Sequence record: MT764208.1
DNA length: 64,000 bases
Reading direction: 5' to 3' (one strand)
Source: Escherichia phage JEP8
A program made the translations under genes and the position numbers. The notes below the pieces were generated by a model. It did no database searches. It worked only from the letters and a program-made list of their open reading frames with translations, and had not been told where the DNA came from. This document shows positions 1-61,040 of this stretch, in pieces. The first letter of the stretch is position 1, and each line of letters opens with the position of its first letter.

Positions 1-886
1 ACGCTTTTTACCAGTCCAGAATCCACCGATACCCGCAGATTTCAATGGAGGACCAGCAATTGCCTCACGGTCCATAAACATCAAGTGCTCATAGTTGTTC
101 ATGTACTCGCATAACTCGCGATATCCCTCGTCGATAATAGGTTCCATTCGATGTTTACCGAAATTATCAAGGAAGTCAACAAGTTTTTCGGTATCGTCGA
201 AACGGTCTTCCCCACCAACCTTATCAATAACATTGTTAACCAGCACATAAACGGAGTCAGTATCACAATAACGAACATATGCAAAATCAGTTGTTCCGCA
301 AAGCTCGTTTAAGTATTCGTTAATCTTACGCTCAATCCACTGAATTGCAAGCTGACCGAACAGTGTGATCGCACTAGCGTTACGGAGATCATAAAAACGG
401 AATTTAGGATTCCCCAACGCACCATAAAGGGAGTTGATCAAAACTTTTCGAGAAAGCTGGTTTGTATTGCACAAGATCGACTCGTCTTTACATTCATCCA
501 GCAATTTCTCTAAGGCATCTTTACTTAATTCAGAAAGCATCGATTTAAACGCTTCGTCAAAGTCGTGACGCACTTCAACGCTATAGCTAATGGTTCCCCC
601 ATAAACATGATTTTCATCGTGTAGAATCGCTTTACAGAGTTCAGCATTGCGATCACATGCCAACATCATGTTTTTGTACTGCTTACGCTGATCGAATACC
701 TTTTTAATCTCAATCGGTACGATACCATGAATATCTTTTCGATACATCCATCCGTTAGGCGAGCAAGAATACTCATCACTAGGACGTGGTGCAGTTTTAT
801 TGATATACTCGTGCATCGGTGCAGCATCAAAAGATCCAGCGATTGTTTCCGGCGAAATGTTAACCTGACGGATGATTGATGGATAC
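1..886 (-). CDS. 43: DNA polymerase gp43, downstream (C-terminal) exon; 3' end lies beyond the window edge
   Basis: Minus-strand frame from 886 downward reads (G)-YPSIIRQVNISPETI..., continuing PolB motif A of T4 gp43 (FDLTSL|YPSII). In-frame TAA at 889-891 directly upstream and no in-frame ATG/GTG/TTG or RBS, so not an independent cistron. Window start reads ...PPLKSAGIGGFWTGKKR. Confidence 0.85.
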
Positions 887-2000
887 CATTATGTTCAGCG
901 CGGTTCGCTACTCCCGCGCCCGTTCTCTTGCGAACTGCTACATGTCACCATGTAGATCAGACTATATCACATTCTCATAGAGAATCCTGCCATTTCGAAT
1001 CGCTTGATTCTACTCTACTCGGTTCGTTACCCTTTCGATAGTCGTTGAACAACTGCATCTTTAAGCTCATTTTGATCAAACGGTGTTCTCTTACAGTACC
1101 CGCTATAATTCTTAGCAAAAGGTTTCTTCTTACCAAAGATCTCTTTTCCTGAATTATGTGCTTCAACAAGAAAATTCACCATTTCATCAAATGTGAAACT
1201 TGCAAATTTAGCATAAGTTTCATTACGTTTTGACATTATTTTACTCATAACTTCCGGTCGTTTAGACGCTGAATTTTCGCGTTTCTCGCCAGTATTAAAT
1301 GATACCAACTCACCGGAAACATATCTAGGATCATCACAACTAACTCTAAACCGATTTCCTTCATTATCCTTAACGATAACAGTATTCTTTAGCTTTTCTG
1401 CCATAGAATCAAGACCTTTTCGTATAGTGTCCTCATCAGCCCCGAAATATTTCTTTCCGCTCATATCGGTTCTGGCTTTTCCGGTCTTGTTTTCGGATAT
1501 TTTCAGTCTAACTTCCTCTCGCTTGGCTGGGTTATTGTCTCCAGCGAATGCATCTTTGGTTAACGCCTTCACTTTATCGTCATAAGATCCTCTAGAGATG
1601 AAAGCATATGCTCTCTTGCATTCACCGTTATTGAATATTAAGCACAATAACCGATGCGCCTCGACGTGGTCTTCAAACTTAAGCCTAACAAGATTCCATT
1701 TATCTAACCGATATTCAGGGAACATTGACTTCGGGCATATATGATGCACCTCGGAATATTCTTCACCCTGATACGGATTAGACACCAGTTTAATGTAGTC
1801 GTTTAATGCTTCCTCGTTATGTATTTCGTACTTTCTTAAAATGTCTTTCATCTCGCGCCTCCAATGTATATCAATATCTATATACATTATAAGACACGTT
1901 AGCTCAAAATGCAACTGCTGCTGATTGTCTCCTTAGAGATTTCCCAGCAATTAAGCAGGTTATTCGATCACTGTCACCAGTGAAAGCCCCATATCAGTTT
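887..2000 (-). mobile_element. Putative group I intron in gene 43 carrying an HNH homing endonuclease ORF
   Basis: Upstream exon ends ...ACU UCC CU (U at 2001); intervening sequence ends with G at 887; joining restores T-S-L-Y-P-S. GGGG at intron nt 11-14 can pair with exon CCCU (P1, G-U at splice site). P-like AAUUGCUGGGAAA and Q-like AAUCAGCAGC (UGCUG/CAGCA pairing), S-like GAUAUAGUC, and GNRA-capped hairpins (CACUG-GUGA-CAGUG; CUACAUG-GUGA-CAUGUAG). Confidence 0.6.
1027..1851 (-). CDS. HNH homing endonuclease (encoded inside the gene 43 intervening sequence)
   Basis: HNH motif EVHHICPKS...WNLVRL...EDHVEAH. ORF track 1027..1914 trimmed to the ATG at 1851 (MKDILRKYEIHNEE...), which has GGAGG 6 nt upstream. 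Confidence 0.8.
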   Translation of the reverse strand: MKDILRKYEIHNEEALNDYIKLVSNPYQGEEYSEVHHICPKSMFPEYRLDKWNLVRLKFEDHVEAHRLLCLIFNNGECKRAYAFISRGSYDDKVKALTKDAFAGDNNPAKREEVRLKISENKTGKARTDMSGKKYFGADEDTIRKGLDSMAEKLKNTVIVKDNEGNRFRVSCDDPRYVSGELVSFNTGEKRENSASKRPEVMSKIMSKRNETYAKFASFTFDEMVNFLVEAHNSGKEIFGKKKPFAKNYSGYCKRTPFDQNELKDAVVQRLSKG

Positions 2001-3202
2001 AGGGAAGTAAGGTCAAAGCTCATCATCCAACGGTAAGCATTCGGCACAGGTTCTTTTACAAATGCGCCTGGATAAGTCTGCTTAGGCTGTATCTTATTTT
2101 CCGGTACTACTTTACCCTCTGCTTTCAGAGATCCGAAGATAATAGCATCCCATACCTTCATCGGGTTATATACATGGTTAAACTTAATTTTCGCATAGAA
2201 ACATAGACTATACACAAGATCGATAAATCCACGCTTTTTATCAATCGCCAGCACACGGTCAACGTCGCCGATGTTATAATCGATGTAAAGTTGATGGTTG
2301 TCATCACGCAATTTCTTTAATGGACCATCATAATCAACCTTACCGATTCCTGTCTCATATTCAGCAACATAATCTAATGCATATGTTGGTTGAGTCGTAA
2401 AGCTAAATTTCTTGTACAGGTCAATATAATCAAGGCTTTCGATCCCCATGATCGTAAATGCTTCACGCTCGTTGCCAAAATCATCCTGTGAGATTCTGGA
2501 TTTAATCTTACCGCACGGGCTTAGACGGTTTGCCGTTCGACTTCCAAACTTATTCCCGATACGTTTAATGATATATGGAATATCGAATGTTTCTGTGTTC
2601 CAGCCAGTGAAACCAACGGGTCGGTTTTCCTCAAAGAATCGGATGTATTCTAACAGCAATTCATCTTCTGTGTCATAAACGTTATAAACAACGCGCTCCA
2701 CAATATCAGGTCGAAGAATAGACTTGCTTGCTTCCCAGATTTCACCGTTTTTTCCTTTCAAATCAAATACAAAGAAACGATCATGTAAGGAATCATAATG
2801 CGTAATTGCATCGATAGGATATTTCGCTTCTTCTGGTTTAGGAAATTCTGGGGCAGTGACCTCAATATCAACCCACGCTACACGGATTTTATTTCGGTCA
2901 TATCGAATCTCGCCTTTATATGTATCGGACAGATAGGAGATGATAAAATCATCCATCCCTAGTGCCTCTTGCCCCATTTCCCCCATCTTTTTACGCCATT
3001 TGTTGGCCTCGTTCATAGATGGGAATTTTTTAGCAATGCAAGGCTTGCCATAGATATCTTTATAATTCGTAACCATACCAGGCGCGGCATGATGAAATAA
3101 AGTTGGCGTATATTCAACGTAACGCTCTTGTTCTTGTCCAGCATCATCAATATAACGCTCGTAGATCTTATCACCCACTCGCTCACATGACAGAAAATAC
3201 AT
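2001..3202 (-). CDS. 43: DNA polymerase gp43, upstream (N-terminal) exon
   Basis: MYFLSCERVGDKIYERYIDD...DIEV...FDLTSL matches the T4 gp43 N-terminus and 3'-5' exonuclease region (DIEVT, YIDLY...). ATG at 3202 preceded by GGAGGA; the track start at 3232 is GTG. Frame stops with TGA (1994-1996) just past the proposed 5' splice site. Confidence 0.9.
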
Positions 3203-3234
3203 AATATAAACTCCTCCACTTACGAAAGACACTC

Positions 3235-5265: not shown

Positions 5266-5952
5266 TTAGTCGGTGTAGCTGGAGTCAAGGTCACACGCGA
5301 TCATATAAGATACGGTTTCACTTGCCAGCCATACAGCCTTACGGCGAGTGAAGCTCAGTTTGTAATCACCGAAGTCAGTAGCAACCAGTTTCATGTTGTC
5401 TTTACGAATAAAGAAATGGAAGTCGGCGGTTCCGGTATATTCGCCCATGTCAAGACAAAACATCTCATTAGGATTGTTTTTGTCAATCTCTTCCCAGCCT
5501 TTGATCATCAGACGACCATCAATCGGTAGAAATTCAAGGCGGTCCACTTTAAGCTGATTGCTCATTTTCATAAGCTGTTTCAGATCGTCGTTGCTCAATT
5601 CGTAATCTACATCGCTTGCAGGTGGAGTAACTCGGCCTTTCGGTGATACGATAGCGGCAGCACTAGCACCAGGATAGTTAATTTTCAGTCGATCGTTAGA
5701 CACACGAATGTTTCCAGTGCGGTTATCAACCGTAATATCTGCTTCATCGCCTACCAGATTCAGAATACCCAAGAAAGAGTTAAGATCGTAAATCCCAATT
5801 TCGTGTTCCAGTTCTTGATTCAGAGTCGCTTCACCATATACAACGTTTGTCATGTTTTTGGTGATCAGCACATTTCCTTTTTTCAGGATGATACCTGGGT
5901 TAATAGCGGAAAAGTTTTTCAGGGTAGCAATGGTTTCTTTAGTCAGTTTCAT
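5266..5952 (-). CDS. 45: Sliding clamp gp45
   Basis: MKLTKETIATLKNFSAINPGIILK... matches T4 gp45 (MKLSKDTTALLKNFATINSGIMLK); 228 aa. Confidence 0.9.
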   Translation of the reverse strand: MKLTKETIATLKNFSAINPGIILKKGNVLITKNMTNVVYGEATLNQELEHEIGIYDLNSFLGILNLVGDEADITVDNRTGNIRVSNDRLKINYPGASAAAIVSPKGRVTPPASDVDYELSNDDLKQLMKMSNQLKVDRLEFLPIDGRLMIKGWEEIDKNNPNEMFCLDMGEYTGTADFHFFIRKDNMKLVATDFGDYKLSFTRRKAVWLASETVSYMIACDLDSSYTD

Positions 5953-18620: not shown

Positions 18621-18649
18621 GTTGTCCTCTCGTTGTTTTCGATGTGAGC

Positions 18650-18677
18650 ATTATACATTAGCTAATCAAGTTGTCAA
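18650..18677 (-). promoter_or_regulatory. sigma70-type early promoter (TTGACA-N16-TATAAT)
   Basis: Minus strand TTGACA (18677..18672) and TATAAT (18655..18650), then GCUCACAUCGAAAAC leader, RBS and ATG at 18620. Confidence 0.65.
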
Positions 18678-18683
18678 CACCCC

Positions 18684-18714
18684 AAAACGAAAAAGCCGAC
18701 CCTTTCGGATCGGC
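18684..18714 (-). terminator. Rho-independent terminator downstream of nrdD
   Basis: Minus strand AGCCGAUCC-GAAA-GGGUCGGCU hairpin followed by UUUUUCGUUUU. Confidence 0.65.
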
Positions 18715-18720
18715 TGAAAA

Positions 18721-24118: not shown

Positions 24119-24931
24119 TCAATCTACGTTAGTTACATAAACTTCTTGCGTATCAGAAGACTTACCACCTGAACGATCTAGGCAATAGGTCTTATTCAAC
24201 AGGACGCAGTTTAAATCATTCCGCTTGATAAAGTCAAGGAGATGATCATTTACCTTTCCCTTATGATGTGTGACATTACTGATACCAAACTGAAAACCAC
24301 GCGCCATAATAGATTCTACCCACTGATAGAATTTAATCTCTTCCTCGTTACTCCAGAACTTATTGTATTCCGCAGAAGTGATAAGGTACGGCGGGTCCAA
24401 ATAAACGAAATCACCTGGCAAGATCTCGATCTCGTCATAGCGACCAGACGTAAAACTGATTCGACCGTCTTTGTTTTCTTCCTTAAAATTCAGGACACGC
24501 TCTACCGCGTTTTCGTTAAAAGTCCGGCGACCAAAATTAGCATTAAATTCTCCCTTTCGGTTATGGCGGTTAATGTTGCTAAAACTGTGCTGAATCAACA
24601 CAAACAGAGATAGCGGATCTGGATTCTCGTTATACTTCTTACGGAATATCATGTAAGCGTCTTTATCATCACGAGACAAATCATTTTCGGCAATAATACG
24701 CTTGATCGTAGAAACCGGATCAGGACACTCGTCAATCGCTTTGTACGCGTCAATTAAGCGGTGATCATAGTCATTAGCCAGCACATCACCTTCGACGTAC
24801 AGAGACACGCTCAAGCCGCCACAGAAGGCATCAACAAAGCGGTTATAGCGCTTAGGGAAATACTTACTAACACCGGGCAATAGCTTTTCCTTATTGCCAG
24901 TATAGGGAATTAAACCTAATGCTTTCTTCAT
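24119..24931 (-). CDS. dam: DNA adenine methyltransferase (Dam, alpha-class)
   Basis: N-terminal YTGNK, motif I FVDAFCGGLSVS, catalytic DPPY (FVYLDPPYLITSAEYNKFW); near-collinear with T4 Dam. Confidence 0.9.
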   Translation of the reverse strand: MKKALGLIPYTGNKEKLLPGVSKYFPKRYNRFVDAFCGGLSVSLYVEGDVLANDYDHRLIDAYKAIDECPDPVSTIKRIIAENDLSRDDKDAYMIFRKKYNENPDPLSLFVLIQHSFSNINRHNRKGEFNANFGRRTFNENAVERVLNFKEENKDGRISFTSGRYDEIEILPGDFVYLDPPYLITSAEYNKFWSNEEEIKFYQWVESIMARGFQFGISNVTHHKGKVNDHLLDFIKRNDLNCVLLNKTYCLDRSGGKSSDTQEVYVTNVD

Positions 24932-31656: not shown

Positions 31657-31685
31657 TTTGATTCTCCTTTGTTGTCGATGTATGC

Positions 31686-31714
31686 ATTATGCTATACCCT
31701 ATTCCGGTTGTCAA
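31686..31714 (-). promoter_or_regulatory. sigma70-type early promoter (TTGACA-N17-CATAAT)
   Basis: Minus strand TTGACA (31714..31709) and CATAAT (31691..31686). Confidence 0.6.
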
Positions 31715-31720
31715 CACCTA

Positions 31721-31750
31721 AAAACGAAAAAGCCACCCTTTCGGATGGCT
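31721..31750 (-). terminator. Rho-independent terminator
   Basis: Minus strand AGCCAUCC-GAAA-GGGUGGCU followed by UUUUUCGUUUUU. Confidence 0.6.
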
Positions 31751-31983
31751 TTTGATTATATTTTATTCTAATCCATTTGTATAGTAGTGTTTGAATCGAC
31801 CTTTGCTAAACTCGTTAAACATAGTAACCAATTTACCACCACTTTCCAATGATAGCACTTCCTCGTCTTAGACGGGTCTTCCGATTCGGCAGTAATTGAA
31901 CACGCGAAAGTATGAGGAAGCCAAATAGTTGTGTTAATGCTAGTATTCTTTTACTTCTGGTATGCATCCCACAGTGACTAACA

Positions 31984-57500: not shown

Positions 57501-57596
57501 TCTATGTTCCGTGAACTTGTAGATAAACGGTTGAAGGATAATATAGGGAATCCACGAGATCCGAAGAATCCGACACAGAGGAAAATTAATGGCTAA
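54510..57596 (+). CDS. 7: Baseplate wedge protein gp7
   Basis: 1028 aa (T4 gp7 ~1032 aa), between 6 and 8. Confidence 0.85.
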   Translation: MIKAPSVTSLTIEKLSANQAYITWDDVGENFFYFVELAETRTRDGEIIPVDELSWVNLGYTAEQNWFEDKNLFPEYYYKFRVAVAAEGFEQSKWIETEEFQTFKTNAYNFSMMREFNLANEFVKQKFTYDNRDYIKFNTDLIQASLMKEDFVFSPEYANMTNISNYIVVDENFHEIQDHIEKVCIDINRTMLAEMNGVLYLFERFQPIVKVSNDKGQSWKAYKAFNDRVGNPVSRTCVYQSKTTTYVLGYDRIFYGRQARDTRWSADDVRFSDDTITFAKVGDENDLGFDVEVFGVFSRLTGDTTKYAEAMACSDDYLWVGAKDVIRRIRLKNTPVDTVQGSPTFGEKIFDPDVIRVTGNDKAVIQKMDVIDGKLLVFVTGEVKQRYQDPTKPENVVPSDDAGVYLIESDGLSFQRVFGNTPQEREYIQHGFSNMSTNGDEVFISHYNHHFESILPDPETAAKYELSEAVKYSQEPTYLTDKKIHQTTFRASYDDLRIWELGPQAYYNEADYTWMRRNGVRVWITNDNRPLVVYPEVIYTQEVDTSGILDQNRVNREVYDKGTVTCYLNNVKFEGFKQYASGVMFHKNTGEIIGFYQFNYRVRDQVGVYWKPTNVAFVAELQNQVREVPWVPVHYDREQDPDLRPLLNKMTPDSFLLENENFRKFSEYYLQFLSDGSGTYYNKLKNLIKNKYPREQDAYEYLWSEMNKRNIYADKNKRDAVVRFFESRKSDFYSTKGVEASYKFLFKLLYNEDVEIEVESQAGLEYDIVVSSTNIDEDIVGRTIYTQTGRANVTYLEREYEGGRLRWRVTIHNLIGRFEEGQVIKSEKTAFEGMILVGVRGKELLSSSIDYINRSRSQYTMKIKSALPVSRYANDVMRFVHPVGFGFIGVTLLTMFINSGLSMKHTETIIQSLKNYKFDSGLPSVYPDRVADLDVDGNIKKDPLTGKALYLTSPTMGEEFPVPPEYDQENSELFHGLKASERRFAMSPLFDQSAVTFSMFRELVDKRLKDNIGNPRDPKNPTQRKING

Positions 57597-58584
57597 TGAA
57601 AATAGTGTGATCTATCGCTCAATAATTACTAGTAAATTTAGAACGGAAAAACTTCTGAATTTCTATAATTCTGTAGGCGATGAGGCAAATCAAATTACAA
57701 TTTATGGAACGTTTGGACGTTCGGAGCCGTGGTCAGAAAACGAAAAAGAGGTGGGCTTTGCCCCACCTTATCCGACCGATTCAACGGCTGGCGTTGTTGA
57801 TATGTGGACCCATATGATGGGGGCGGTTAAGATTAACAAATCACTTCTTGATGCGGTTATCCCTCGTAAAGATTGGGGTGATACCGGACAGGATAACCCG
57901 CGCACGTTCTTTATCAATGACGTTGTTGTTGTAAACTCAGCACCATATAACCGTACAGATGTTGGTAGCGGTTGGATGGTGTATCGAGTGACAGATGTTC
58001 CTGATCGCGGTTATTGTTCTATTTCAAGCATTGACGCAAAAGTAGAGTGTTTGAAATTGGGTGGAAAATGGACCCCTACGCATGAATCAATCGCGCCACC
58101 AGTAGGGAAAGGCGATTCTATTGATATGGGTGACGGATATCGTTGGGAATATTTGTACACAATTCCACCTGATGCGGCGATCAACCGTTGCACCAATGAA
58201 CATATTGTTGTACCGTTCCCCGATGAACTGCGACAAGATCCGGCGCGTTGGGGCTATGACAATGTGATCACCTGGTATAATGACTATAATCTGCTTTATC
58301 GGCTGAAAGTAGTAACTTTGCGTTTTCAGGCTTATATGGACTCTGCGCAATTCCCAACTACCGCGTTAGTGGGTAATACTGGTTTCCGTCAGTTAAGCAT
58401 TATCCTTAACCCATTGGAAAAGAAAGCACGCCCTAGCGATCCAGACGTTAAAGCGGTTAAAGATCAGTACCGTCCGCAAGACTTAGAGCCACACTCAGGA
58501 GAAATGATCTACATGGAAAACCGACAACCTATCGTTCGGTCATTAGATCAAACAGAACTTGTTTCTGTATTGTTTGAGTTCTAA
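57589..58584 (+). CDS. 8: Baseplate wedge protein gp8
   Basis: 331 aa (T4 gp8 ~334 aa), between 7 and 9. Confidence 0.85.
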   Translation: MANENSVIYRSIITSKFRTEKLLNFYNSVGDEANQITIYGTFGRSEPWSENEKEVGFAPPYPTDSTAGVVDMWTHMMGAVKINKSLLDAVIPRKDWGDTGQDNPRTFFINDVVVVNSAPYNRTDVGSGWMVYRVTDVPDRGYCSISSIDAKVECLKLGGKWTPTHESIAPPVGKGDSIDMGDGYRWEYLYTIPPDAAINRCTNEHIVVPFPDELRQDPARWGYDNVITWYNDYNLLYRLKVVTLRFQAYMDSAQFPTTALVGNTGFRQLSIILNPLEKKARPSDPDVKAVKDQYRPQDLEPHSGEMIYMENRQPIVRSLDQTELVSVLFEF

Positions 58585-58596
58585 GTGTATGATTTA

Positions 58597-58634
58597 AAAG
58601 CCAATTCGAGAGAGTTGGCTTTTCTGTTTTTGGT
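58597..58634 (+). terminator. Rho-independent terminator after gene 8
   Basis: GCCAAUUC-GAGAGA-GUUGGC hairpin followed by UUUUCUGUUUUU. Confidence 0.65.
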
Positions 58635-58635
58635 G

Positions 58636-58664
58636 TTGACAATCTTGTCTGGTAAAGGTATAAT
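58636..58664 (+). promoter_or_regulatory. sigma70-type promoter (TTGACA-N17-TATAAT) inside the late baseplate cluster
   Basis: TTGACA (58636..58641), TATAAT (58659..58664), then GCUCACAUCUAAACAACGGAGGAUAAAUU-AUG, the same cassette leader type as the minus-strand early promoters. Confidence 0.7.
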
Positions 58665-58693
58665 GCTCACATCTAAACAACGGAGGATAAATT

Positions 58694-58927
58694 ATGGCAC
58701 GTCGTAAATTTACAGATAATTGTGAAGCAATTCAGGTATCCCCTTGCGGTTGGGATGTGATCGCGAACGGTGAAAAGATCGGAGAGATCATCGATCATAC
58801 TCATTCATCATTAGCCGATTACACCGATGAACTATGGGAGGGTATCAACTTCATGAATGACACTAAACGATTCAAGACTATCGACGAAGCTATCTATTTT
58901 GTGTATAATCCAACTTTCGGTATGTGA
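58694..58927 (+). CDS. Hypothetical protein (inserted module between genes 8 and 9)
   Basis: 77-aa ORF with GGAGGA RBS directly after the promoter. Confidence 0.55.
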   Translation: MARRKFTDNCEAIQVSPCGWDVIANGEKIGEIIDHTHSSLADYTDELWEGINFMNDTKRFKTIDEAIYFVYNPTFGM

Positions 58928-58938
58928 GGAACTAGAAA

Positions 58939-59271
58939 ATGGCACGCGTAAATATTAAATTGCATTACACAATGAATAAAGCTAAGTTCCCAATGCAAAA
59001 GCATTACTATGGTCTACGTGCACAAGATCCTAAACTCTATGGTACTCATTGGTTTTGTAAACATGATAACCAATGGCACACATACGAAGAAATGCACGAG
59101 ATGATGAAACAGGGTATTGAATTTAGTTATTCTAATTATGACCATCGTATAACTTGCATTCGAAAATTGAAACGATGGATTCGTAAGAATCCGCAATTTA
59201 AAAACTTTGTGTTCTTTATGTCTCATGTTTATTTGGGGCATAGCGTTACCGTCACAGCAAAGGTTAAATAA
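58939..59271 (+). CDS. Hypothetical protein (inserted module)
   Basis: 110-aa ORF with GAGGAA RBS; His/Cys-containing. Confidence 0.55.
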   Translation: MARVNIKLHYTMNKAKFPMQKHYYGLRAQDPKLYGTHWFCKHDNQWHTYEEMHEMMKQGIEFSYSNYDHRITCIRKLKRWIRKNPQFKNFVFFMSHVYLGHSVTVTAKVK

Positions 59272-60110
59272 TGGCACGACTTTCTAAACAAGAACAAAAA
59301 TTACACGACCGAGCAATGGAGTTGATTAATTCAGATCGCCCATTGACATATGAAGAAAAAGAATTTTGCTATAATAACTATCATGGCGATGGGCTAGGTG
59401 GTTCCGGTGCATTCTTTACCCCAGAAGGGCTTGCATGGGATTTTACCATCGATGCACATTGCACAGGAAAAGTATTGGATCTTTGTGCTGGGATCGGTCG
59501 CTTATCTTTTTGTATGTTACATCGTTGTAAGCCAGAAAAGATCGTATGCGTCGAACTCAATCCAGAATTTGCGCGGATTGGCAAGCGACTATTACCGGAA
59601 GCAGAATGGATCACCAGCGATGTATTCGAATTTGAGTCAAACGAAAAATTCGATGTTGTAATTAGCAATCCACCTTTCGGGAAAATCAATACAACCGACA
59701 CAAAGGATGTATTTGAGTACACTGGCGGCGAATTTGAATTTAAGGTTATGACGCTAGGGCAAAAGTTTGCCGATGTTGGCTATTTTATTGTTCCTGTGGG
59801 TTCCGCTGGTTTTGCTTATTCCGGCAGACCTTATTATGACGGGACCATGAAGTCTAATAAATATCTAAAATGGAGCAAACAAACTGGTTTGGTGACTTAT
59901 GCCGGATGTGGGATCGATACATCAATCTATCGCGATGAATGGCACAGTACCAACGTTTTAACAGAAGTGGTTGAGGTTCGGTATTACGAGAAAGAAGCCG
60001 TAGAAGCGCCTAAATCGCGTCCTAACGAACAAATAGAAGAAAGTAAGGAGATTACCTTACCGAAACAGGAAAGCGAGTCTGGGACGCTCTCAGATTTGTT
60101 TGACATTTAA
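59271..60110 (+). CDS. SAM-dependent methyltransferase with NPPF motif (gamma-class amino-MTase fold; DNA N6-adenine/N4-cytosine or RNA/protein target unresolved)
   Basis: Motif I VLDLCAGIGRLS, acidic loop VCVELNPE, motif IV VISNPPFG, in the order I then IV. Confidence 0.7.
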   Translation: MARLSKQEQKLHDRAMELINSDRPLTYEEKEFCYNNYHGDGLGGSGAFFTPEGLAWDFTIDAHCTGKVLDLCAGIGRLSFCMLHRCKPEKIVCVELNPEFARIGKRLLPEAEWITSDVFEFESNEKFDVVISNPPFGKINTTDTKDVFEYTGGEFEFKVMTLGQKFADVGYFIVPVGSAGFAYSGRPYYDGTMKSNKYLKWSKQTGLVTYAGCGIDTSIYRDEWHSTNVLTEVVEVRYYEKEAVEAPKSRPNEQIEESKEITLPKQESESGTLSDLFDI

Positions 60111-60140
60111 TTATAAGCCGTCCTTGTGGGCGGCTTTTTT

Positions 60141-60148
60141 GTATGTAT
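60141..60148 (+). promoter_or_regulatory. T4-type late promoter core TATAAATA upstream of gene 9
   Basis: Exact TATAAATA 37 nt upstream of the gene 9 ATG, after a weak hairpin plus T-run that closes the inserted module. Confidence 0.55.
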
Positions 60149-60185
60149 TTTATAAATAATACATCATAACATGAGGAATTAAACA

Positions 60186-61040
60186 ATGGCACAAGTTCCA
60201 AAGAAAAGAATAGACACAGGTACTGTCGGCAATCCATCGACTGGCGATATCTTATATGATGGCGGCAATAAAATTAACGATAACTTTGATTCAATATATG
60301 ACGCATTTGCTGATCAGCGGTTTAAAGACGTAGACCACGGTGTGGGAAGAATGGTTATTCATGCAACCGGATACTATCAGAAGCATCCACGTCAAAGCTA
60401 CGCTGGTTCCGCTGTTGAGATTGGGAGTCTACACGATATCGATACAACTCAAGGCGCACTTATTGCTATTCTACCTAAAGCAAAGGTCGGCGAGGGTGTT
60501 GTATTCATAAATAGTAACGGTAGCCTTTCAACGACGACACCGCTCAATATTCGAACTCAAGCAGGTGATTCTATTAGCGGTTATTCCGGTGATGCTACAA
60601 TAACACAACCATTTTCAAAAGTCACTGTTTGGTGTACTGCCGTTGAAGGTAGTCGCGTAACGTGGCGATTGGGTATCGAAAGTATGTTTACCGATACAAC
60701 AACGCCATTAGATAAAACAGTTAACGTAACTGGAGTAGCAACAAACGTTGCTATTGCCGCAAAAACAGAATACGTTTCCATCAAATTATTAACTACCGCT
60801 AGCAATACATCCGGTTCAAAAATGCGTTCAAGTGAAACGCTACTGATGATTGATTCTAAAGCCGGAAAAGTTTATGCGACGGAATATGCAGTTTTGCAGA
60901 AGACAGAAGATGAACTATACACGGTTCGTTATTTCATCGGTTCCGGCGATAAAGTATATGCAGAGTATAAGGCTACTGGCGAAAATATTCGTTTAGCAGT
61001 TAAAGCCGTAGACACTATTAAAATCGGGGTTGCTACATGA
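60186..61040 (+). CDS. 9: Baseplate wedge / long-tail-fibre connector gp9
   Basis: PKKRIDTGTVGNPSTGDILYDGGNKINDNFDSIYDAFADQR...HATGYYQKH... closely matches the T4 gp9 N-terminus. Confidence 0.9.
   Translation: MAQVPKKRIDTGTVGNPSTGDILYDGGNKINDNFDSIYDAFADQRFKDVDHGVGRMVIHATGYYQKHPRQSYAGSAVEIGSLHDIDTTQGALIAILPKAKVGEGVVFINSNGSLSTTTPLNIRTQAGDSISGYSGDATITQPFSKVTVWCTAVEGSRVTWRLGIESMFTDTTTPLDKTVNVTGVATNVAIAAKTEYVSIKLLTTASNTSGSKMRSSETLLMIDSKAGKVYATEYAVLQKTEDELYTVRYFIGSGDKVYAEYKATGENIRLAVKAVDTIKIGVAT

Follow-up and report, generated by a model that had tools for sequence, protein, structure and literature searches.

We analysed a 64,000-nucleotide (nt) stretch of Escherichia phage JEP8 (MT764208.1), referred to as the window, with a focus on the segment that separates baseplate genes 8 and 9 and that encodes a methyltransferase of 279 amino acids (aa). 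The phage is a Krischvirus (RB49/Phi1/JSE group), and its closest record is PHB13, at 99.1%. Along the plus strand, the stop codon of gene 8 is followed by a hairpin terminator, a sigma70 promoter, three plus-strand genes, a second hairpin terminator, the octamer TATAAATA, and gene 9. Every element that a first-pass annotation had listed here (hairpin, promoter, leader, three open reading frames (ORFs), methyltransferase motifs) is present in the sequence. We consider it probable, if well short of certain, that the segment is a lineage-fixed early unit of the promoter-early stem-loop (PeSL) type and that it encodes an early-expressed orphan N6-adenine DNA methyltransferase tethered to the gp45 sliding clamp of the phage. 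The features of the locus, together with two genes elsewhere in the window, are the following.

57589..58584, plus strand: gene 8, baseplate wedge subunit of 331 aa, the upstream late gene (Pfam Phage-Gp8, 2.4e-143; PHROG baseplate wedge subunit).
58596..58691, plus strand: PeSL element of hairpin, sigma70 promoter, leader and Shine-Dalgarno sequence, from a repeat family of ~100 bp (alignment to other copies; PMC2839356).
58596..58634, plus strand: intrinsic-terminator-like hairpin (stem 58596-58623) with T-rich tail (folding; terminator annotated at the equivalent site in GEC-3S).
58636..58664, plus strand: sigma70 early promoter TTGACA-N17-TATAAT (12/12 consensus; promoter also annotated in GEC-3S).
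58682..58687, plus strand: Shine-Dalgarno sequence GGAGGA, 6 nt ahead of the first ATG (58694) (sequence).
58694..58927, plus strand: orf77, 77 aa, starting MARRKF, an ORFan in a variable slot (phrog_16603, unknown function).
58939..59271, plus strand: orf110, 110 aa, starting MARVNI, an ORFan with two alleles in the genus (phrog_12630, unknown function).
59271..60110, plus strand: methyltransferase, 279 aa, starting MARLSK; core of aa 1-238 with N6-adenine methyltransferase fold (motifs, profiles, AlphaFold2 model).
59472-59498, plus strand: methyltransferase motif I, VLDLCAGIG (aa 68-76) (sequence).
59667-59678, plus strand: methyltransferase motif IV, NPPF (aa 133-136) (sequence).
59985..60083, plus strand: acidic low-complexity linker of the methyltransferase (aa 239-271), predicted disordered and strain-variable (AlphaFold2 confidence; Krischvirus copies).
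60084..60107, plus strand: C-terminal octapeptide TLSDLFDI of the methyltransferase, putative gp45-binding tail (likeness to the gp43 tail).
60115..60142, plus strand: closing terminator hairpin (60115-60136) and T-run (folding; annotated in GEC-3S; kept in the metagenomic contigs L009, L012 and L013).
60151..60158, plus strand: TATAAATA, putative T4-type late promoter core for gene 9 (sequence, conserved position).
60186..61040, plus strand: gene 9, baseplate wedge/tail fibre connector, 284 aa (Pfam T4_gp9_10_N, 1.4e-40).
5269..5952, minus strand: gene 45, sliding clamp, the presumed partner of the methyltransferase tail (tblastn with Phi1 gp45, 99.6% identity over 228 aa).
24122-24931, minus strand: Dam.

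The signals that delimit the unit are strong by folding and by consensus. The hairpin after gene 8 has a 12-bp stem and a folding energy of -15.8 kcal/mol (z = -4.2), with none of 200 shuffled sequences equally stable, and the hairpin after the methyltransferase gene reaches -15.9 kcal/mol (z = -4.1). TTGACA-N17-TATAAT is the sole 12/12 match between 54 and 64 kb. TATAAATA lies 27 nt ahead of the ATG of gene 9, where by sequence it fits the core (about -10) of a T4-type late promoter, and its position after the hairpin is conserved across four diverged lineages, being retained in L009, L012, and L013; taken by itself, the octamer is no commoner in the window than expected by chance (5 found, 6.35 expected). 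The first-pass annotation had proposed a late promoter core ahead of gene 9, and the element stands, but its coordinates are 60151-60158 and not 60141-60148, which lie 10 nt too far to the left. In the unit as we picture it, the first hairpin would halt transcription leaving gene 8, the consensus sigma70 promoter would drive the two ORFans and the methyltransferase early in infection, the second hairpin would close the early unit, and the late promoter TATAAATA would restart transcription for gene 9.

The regulatory part of this unit is a PeSL, a class described in RB49 and Phi1 (Arbiol et al. 2010, PMC2839356; Comeau et al. 2014, PMC4122927) in which a sigma70 promoter and a stem-loop terminator are followed by a Shine-Dalgarno sequence and a start codon. 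Each genome carries about 50 of them, mainly in hyperplastic regions and with "a few" within virion modules beside genes of unknown function, and experiments have shown activity of their promoters and terminators; PeSLs have been proposed to drive module shuffling (PMC2839356). The gene 8/9 copy has the same composition: a promoter, a stem-loop, likeness to its sister copies across ~100 bp, an intergenic position ahead of an ORFan, and an AT-rich sequence upstream of the promoter (TTTTCTGTTTTTGGTG). Its 12-bp stem immediately 5' of the -35 box is one of the five published PeSL placements (predicted terminator). With up to 3 mismatches allowed, the window contains eight copies of the promoter plus GCTCACATC leader where 0.00 are expected; the seven besides this one lie on the minus strand, and the ~95-nt hairpin, promoter, and leader match 18622-18715 (minus strand) at 79% over 95 nt and 31658-31753 (minus strand) at 75% over 99 nt. 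Alignment and copy count hence bear out the earlier proposal of an early-type cassette whose leader is common to the minus-strand cassettes, and its assignment to a mobile type agrees with the published evidence for PeSL mobility (PMC2839356). As the class is published and the GEC-3S record annotates a terminator, a promoter, and a terminator at this locus, the cassette is already known. Among the PeSL copies found in the window, this is the only one on the plus strand; it lies within the baseplate cluster, at a position that is fixed in the lineage rather than variable, with variation confined to the ORFs directly behind the promoter, and it adds one well-documented, fixed copy to a textbook class.

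Upon comparing the junction across relatives, we found that the segment is old. The gap between genes 8 and 9 measures 63 nt in T4, 10 nt in RB16, and 9 nt in Tulanevirus 60AhydR15PP, so that the genes are adjacent not only in T4, as had been noted, but also in RB16 and Tulanevirus. The homologous methyltransferase lies elsewhere in other genera, namely within the early gene 41-61 replication cluster in RB16 and KP27 and within an ORFan region in Aeromonas AS-zj. This different placement, the absence of the insert from T4, RB16, and Tulanevirus, its PeSL copy, the published PeSL-mediated shuffling, and a variable small-ORF slot that is shared with phage FV3 would all suit the first-pass proposal of a mobile regulatory cassette that placed an early methyltransferase in the late structural cluster, if read as a recent event. 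However, of the 59 records that match, 57 contain the whole 3.4-kb stretch (95-99% identity), the segment is complete in all 58 Krischvirus records, the methyltransferase at the junction is universal in the genus, and the diverged metagenomic lineages L009, L012, and L013, with methyltransferases 65-68% identical, keep the order of gp8, hairpin, promoter, methyltransferase, hairpin, TATAAATA, and gp9. No Krischvirus-like genome with adjacent genes 8 and 9 and with a single PeSL or none at the junction was found among the relatives compared. We therefore regard a recent or variable event as very improbable. Since sister lineages at this distance retain the arrangement, the methyltransferase at the junction is ancestral within the lineage, and its genus-wide presence together with that in sister lineages indicates an ancient insertion that became fixed. 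Judged from these comparisons, the segment is an insertion relative to other T4-type phages, yet an old and lineage-fixed one. The idea of a mobile cassette holds only for this deep history and for the small ORFs: in the slot between promoter and methyltransferase, Krischvirus has orf77 and orf110, L013 has a different ORF of 154 aa, and L009 and L012 lack any ORF.

What is new at this locus is the C-terminal tail of the methyltransferase; both the cassette and the gene can be found in existing records and publications. The methyltransferase ends in ...ESESGTLSDLFDI and the DNA polymerase gp43 of Phi1 in ...EKVASLTDLFDI, so that TLSDLFDI faces SLTDLFDI with 6 of 8 residues identical and with both differences being Ser/Thr swaps. 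When the C-terminal octapeptides of 547 ORFs (50 aa or longer, from ~160 kb of Krischvirus DNA) were scanned, those of gp43 itself (8/8) and the methyltransferase (6/8) were alone in exceeding 3/8 identity. Over its final 40 residues, gp43 does not vary between 57 Krischvirus records, and PHB13 agrees at 39/40. In T4, the gp43 tail EKASLDFLFG and the ligase loop GLDFLFD bind gp45, with a dissociation constant of ~10 μM for the ligase peptide (PMC6212786). In gp43, gp55, and gp33 alike, a hydrophobic and acidic tail follows a variable, flexible linker, and these tails can stand in for one another (PMC2988020). The methyltransferase shares both traits: its very C-terminus is a hydrophobic, acidic motif nearly identical to the tail of the cognate gp43, and the linker ahead of it is variable and unstructured.

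The pattern of substitutions points to selection on this tail. Among Krischvirus copies TLSDLFDI is invariant, whereas the linker accumulates substitutions. In the diverged lineages the linkers are rebuilt in length and sequence, and the proteins end in TLTDLFDI, SLSMFDI, and TLDFVDFSEI; the last of these, in L009, matches with TLDFVDF the gp45-binding motif LDFLF of T4 (the L009, L012, and L013 contigs are short, and gene 43 falls outside them; a single-protein query of IMG/VR matched close Krischvirus relatives only). The shared tail residues use different synonymous codons in these lineages (TTG/TTA/CTG, ATT/ATC, TTT/TTC), indicating that selection acts on the tail peptide and not on the DNA. 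The RB16/KP27-type methyltransferases end in [ND]LFTFTIE, which fits the tails of the clamp partners in RB16 (gp43 SLNTLF, gp55 TLEMF, gp33 TLDDF; [ST]Lxx[FL]). From these likenesses we infer that the methyltransferase binds the gp45 trimer. The gp45 ligands named in PMC2988020 and PMC6212786 are the clamp loader, gp43, gp55, gp33, and DNA ligase, with RNase H proposed; unlike these partners (e.g., gp43 SLDFLFG), the bearer of the putative tail here is a methyltransferase. Separately, gp8 ends in ...LVSVLFEF (58561-58584), a hydrophobic and acidic C-terminus superficially like a clamp tail, which in a structural protein is probably due to chance and advises caution with short motifs.

The body of the protein is a methyltransferase by several measures. 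Its best Pfam match is the generic MTS (1e-9), followed by Methyltransf_25 and Eco57I (4e-6); it belongs to PHROG 3820, "DNA methyltransferase" (2e-117); and its top PADLOC matches are DNA methyltransferases (MADS mad2, 4.8e-17, and Type II methyltransferases). It reaches no curated family cut-off beyond those three generic Pfam families. The AlphaFold2 model is confident for residues 1-245 (mean predicted local distance difference test (pLDDT) score 84.7) and disordered for residues 251-279 (pLDDT below 50 for aa 251-273), and the predicted structure is a class I Rossmann methyltransferase fold nearest to N6-adenine enzymes. Motifs, profile matches, and fold thus agree with the S-adenosylmethionine (SAM) methyltransferase that had been called from the motifs. 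GAFFTP (aa 46-51), CAGIG (within DLCAGIG, aa 70-76), and NPPFG (NPPF, aa 133-136) are invariant in two alignments (A1 and A2) of more than 20 diverse members, and the order of motifs X ([FY]xTP), I, and IV (NPPF) is that of gamma-type N6-adenine enzymes. Hence, N6-adenine chemistry is well supported. No cognate nuclease gene lies next to the methyltransferase, the neighbors being two ORFans and baseplate genes, which makes it an orphan enzyme; for want of a nuclease partner at the locus, we rejected a restriction-modification system or defence island.

The invariance of these motifs bears on whether the tail could be the main business of the protein. The methyltransferase tail is nearer to that of gp43 than those of gp55 or gp33 (TNTLDI) are, gp45 also activates late transcription (PMC2988020), and toxins with clamp motifs exist, such as SocB (PMC9690074). 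The protein could accordingly be a competitor or regulator that occupies gp45 (or, in relatives, the beta clamp) and thereby modulates replication or the switch to late transcription, or inhibits host replication, with methyl transfer being secondary. Yet the catalytic and SAM-binding motifs are invariant in tailed and tail-less members alike, indicating that enzyme activity is under selection, and a conserved core of 238 aa would be needless for a mere competitor. We hold such a role to be distinctly improbable.

GenBank records label the protein "release factor glutamine methyltransferase", and the RB49 record carries the note "similar to rRNA guanine-N2-methyltransferase". Together with MTS as the best single Pfam match, these labels would suit an RNA or protein methyltransferase (a PrmC/HemK-type glutamine enzyme, an RsmC-type rRNA N2-methylguanosine enzyme, or a METTL5-like rRNA N6-methyladenosine (m6A) enzyme) that alters the host translation apparatus early in infection. 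The scores fall far below the respective cut-offs, however, at 37.6 bits versus 199.1 for PrmC/HemK (TIGR03534, residues 64-137 only) and 29.2 bits versus 295 for RsmC (16S rRNA m2G1207; NF007023, residues 59-142 only), and the matches extend no further than the Rossmann core that these enzymes have in common. Both PADLOC and PHROG moreover group the enzyme with DNA methyltransferases, and the clamp tail and the replication genes beside its relatives (genes 41-61 in RB16/KP27, O and P in a lambdoid prophage) fit a DNA enzyme only. We give little credence to an RNA or protein substrate. That the substrate would be DNA rather than RNA is suggested by the tail and by the tail pattern across the family.

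The family is large, with 729 representatives (E < 1e-3), and the pattern was counted in 93 representatives with a tail of at least 9 residues. Within the last 14 residues, Q[LIVMFA]x[LIVMF][FL] occurs in 27 of the 93 tails versus 0.6 expected from shuffled tails (maximum 4), and [LMIF]F occurs in 51 of 93 versus 6.7 expected. The strict form Q[LIVM]x[LM]F is present in 16 tails, in 10 of which it ends exactly at the C-terminus. It is the motif of the bacterial beta clamp, a C-terminal QL(S/D)LF (PMC9690074), and we refer to the loosened form Qxx[LIM][FW] as a beta-type tail. Among 80 loci from IMG/VR, 32 have beta-type tails (QLSLFDAA, QLDLFGMAA, QASLFGDAA, and similar) on contigs with a median of 50 kb, 12 have gp45-type tails on contigs with a median of 165 kb, and 24 are tail-less, mostly on enterobacterial elements of ~30 kb. 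A member in a lambdoid prophage lies directly behind replication genes O and P and ends in QQLDLFGEAA, one on a plasmid-like contig that also encodes ParAB and a relaxase ends in QLSLFA, and one on a contig resembling an integrative and conjugative element, which also encodes a relaxase and an integrase, ends in QLTLF. The lineages thus appear to carry differing clamp-type motifs, each suited to the clamp expected for its element.

We lean slightly towards extending the reading to the whole family. Its members, small N6-adenine DNA methyltransferases widespread among phages, plasmids, and integrative elements, would be tethered to the clamp, each by a tail that evolved to match the clamp that replicates the element. 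QL[SD]LF-like tails would then address the host beta clamp and gp43-like tails gp45, nascent mobile-element DNA would be methylated at the fork before host restriction acts, the family would be a prokaryotic counterpart of Dnmt1-PCNA, and the Krischvirus copy would be its clearest example.

Several observations weigh against a clamp-tethered DNA methyltransferase. The match to gp43 is only 8 residues long, 21 of the last 27 nt of the methyltransferase gene coincide with the gene 43 3' end, and the last 12 nt (TTTGACATTTAA), which include TTGACA, are fully identical to it; judged from this nucleotide identity, the Krischvirus copy by itself would be compatible with a short, functionless transfer of sequence. 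LFTFTIE, the tail of the RB16/KP27 type, differs from the RB16 gp43 tail SLNTLFGDDW. Tail-less members occur in the phages AS-zj, GAP32, and phiM12 and as enterobacterial chromosomal copies, which implies that tethering is not essential to the family. METTL5 and PH1948 score level with DNA methyltransferases in fold similarity, so that fold alone does not separate DNA from rRNA m6A enzymes. High-performance liquid chromatography-mass spectrometry of Krischvirus TB34 detected no modified nucleosides, with only cytosine derivatives discussed (PMC13390438); as adenine is never mentioned there, this result is uninformative for the methyltransferase. Finally, the DNA of KP27 is reported to resist EcoRI, NsiI, SnaBI, and EcoRII via an "unknown modification" in a study that reports no further methyltransferases (PMC5219037). 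KP27_035 (L004 4001-4777) and KP15 gp027 are both members of the clamp-tailed family, with the tail DLFTFTIE, yet the two phages differ in restriction resistance (PMC5219037), and the resistance of KP27 is therefore uncorrelated with the presence of the gene.

The shared 12 nt and the tail-less members would suit an ordinary orphan DNA methyltransferase, free in solution like T4 Dam, with a tail that has no part in clamp tethering and is a neutral remnant of a short recombination with gene 43 or binds some other partner. In the diverged lineages, however, the tail has persisted through synonymous codon changes, whereas the linker has been rebuilt, and the motifs of independent lineages match the element type, with 27 of 93 tails against 0.6 expected; neutral remnants would not yield such a pattern. 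We consider this explanation unlikely, although it deserves more weight than the other alternatives. With regard to the nucleotide identity, the last codons of gene 43, TTT GAC ATT TAA, include TTGACA, with TATAAT 16 nt further on (Phi1, L014 ~30-75; also RB49 and GEC-3S), and in the annotation this TTGACA serves as the -35 box for the PeSL that follows, a known substrate of recombination. A promoter element prone to recombination hence overlaps with the clamp-binding tail, and this overlap could be a route for copying the tail to other genes.

For the Krischvirus enzyme, clamp tethering would operate as follows: its tail would dock it on gp45 clamps, either at the replication fork or behind it, and it would methylate adenines of newly made phage DNA, yielding a replication-coupled protection against restriction. 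The early timing, the target sequence, and the anti-restriction role of the enzyme are here what we infer. A eukaryotic precedent is Dnmt1-PCNA (PMC9690074), a DNA methyltransferase with a clamp-interaction motif in which new DNA is preferentially methylated, as is putatively the case here. Dnmt1, however, is a C5-cytosine enzyme with a PCNA-binding PIP box in its N-terminal region that maintains epigenetic marks, whereas the Krischvirus enzyme is an N6-adenine enzyme with a C-terminal tail and a presumed role in restriction protection. With the gamma-class N6-adenine methyltransferases (M.TaqI, HsdM, Eco57I/MmeI, MADS mad2) and the orphan T4 Dam, it shares the motif order, the Rossmann fold, the orphan status without an adjacent nuclease that is seen in phage methyltransferases, and carriage on mobile elements; it differs in its core of 238 aa, where ~100 aa after NPPF replace the large target-recognition domain or S subunit. 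Many of its relatives end in QLSLF, QLDLFG.AA, or QASLFGDAA, much like the C-terminal QL(S/D)LF of the beta-clamp binders Pol II, Pol IV, Pol V, and MutS (PMC9690074), whereas the window enzyme itself has a gp45-type and not a beta-type tail.

Neither a review of clamp partners (PMC9690074) nor the literature searched lists a methyltransferase among those of the beta clamp, the sole methyltransferase-clamp example in that review being Dnmt1-PCNA. Similarly, the full-text literature searched, whose coverage excludes most subscription journals, yielded no earlier account of a phage or bacterial methyltransferase with a clamp-binding tail. If clamp binding holds true, methylation in phages and mobile elements would be coupled directly to DNA synthesis, which bears on how a fast-replicating phage or an incoming plasmid protects its DNA before restriction cuts. 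It would also add a new class of clients to the gp45 and beta-clamp tool-belts, provide a sequence rule by which the tail type allows one to guess the clamp of an uncultured element, and offer a natural scaffold for replication-targeted DNA labelling. The analysis furthermore corrects the PrmC and RsmC-like labels, as well as the statement of "no other methyltransferases" in KP15/KP27-type phages.

Regarding the methyltransferase complement, the enzyme at the 8/9 junction is indeed a second one beside Dam, as the first-pass annotation had counted, but for the genus two is an undercount. Phi1 (NC_009821) annotates a third, ORF189, a "DNA methyltransferase" of 238 aa at 117297-118013, in a region outside the window, with no detectable relation to the 8/9 enzyme, bringing Krischvirus to at least three predicted methyltransferases. 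The Krischvirus phages SAP and TB34, 99.96% identical, are reported to differ completely in cytosine modification, in that SAP contains hydroxymethylcytosine (hmC) and glucosyl-hmC and TB34 neither (PMC13390438); known pathway genes do not explain this difference, which is, as far as seen, unrelated to the gene 8/9 locus.

The closest relatives of the methyltransferase outside its lineage are tail-less copies at 53-61% aa identity (Citrobacter freundii, L006-L008 8001-8717; L037-L058), whereas other T4-like phages have enzymes more distant from that of Krischvirus (44-50%). They sit at the extreme edge of ~30-kb enterobacterial viral contigs or islands, with HNH and rve transposase/integrase-type genes nearby, and the C. 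freundii copies adjoin yliH/GSDH. In Dickeya phage JA33 (L029 401-1550) and in P0126 and P0132, a second C-terminal domain of ~140 aa replaces the clamp tail; it ends in ...YIGIEQ.P... and resembles part of another methyltransferase.

The two small ORFs of the unit are true ORFans. Neither orf77 nor orf110 has a match in Pfam, NCBIfam, or PADLOC, their PHROGs are of unknown function, and among 5.8 billion proteins orf77 falls in 1 cluster and orf110 in 5. The orf110 alleles of the window and of GEC-3S/RB49 share 73% aa identity, while the flanking orf77 is 100% and the methyltransferase 98.6% identical. The divergence is bounded almost exactly by the gene, with neighbors at 98-100% identity (also L001 1840-2169 and L023 3773-4102). 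The pair recurs in Vequintavirus FV3 (ORF023/024) as an FV3-specific island among rV5-like genes, at 71% nucleotide identity to the window and with aa identities of 77% for orf77 (against the C-terminal part of ORF023) and 60-71% for orf110. Seven residues of orf110 are invariant in alignment A3 (C40, H42, H47, H69, C73, H96, H101), and this Cys/His set may form a metal site; the AlphaFold2 model of orf110 has a pLDDT of 62 and is unusable for fold comparison. In the original RB49 record (AY343333, L002 1595-1841), the orf77 homologue is split into ORF140w/141w, through either a frameshift or a sequencing error, and the window-type region has a 97% match in a more recent record of RB49 (OZ035808). 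We rejected the three genes as a conserved operon, since by tblastn the two small ORFs ahead of the methyltransferase in RB16 and KP27 show no similarity to orf77 and orf110 and only the methyltransferase is common. The shared MAR starts were likewise rejected as a signal: MA[KR]L[ST]K is the conserved N-terminus of the methyltransferase family, gp9 begins with MAQ, and we take the similarity for a translation-start preference.

Lastly, gene 43 of the window (1-3232, minus strand) is interrupted relative to Phi1, with residues 1-401 encoded at 3202-2000 and residues 402-696 at 885-1. The insert of ~1.1 kb (~886-1999) encodes a 295-aa HNH homing endonuclease (1027-1914; phrog_12434, 3.5e-131). 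As the upstream gene 43 ORF ends at 1994, the polymerase gene in this phage appears to be split or intron-bearing.

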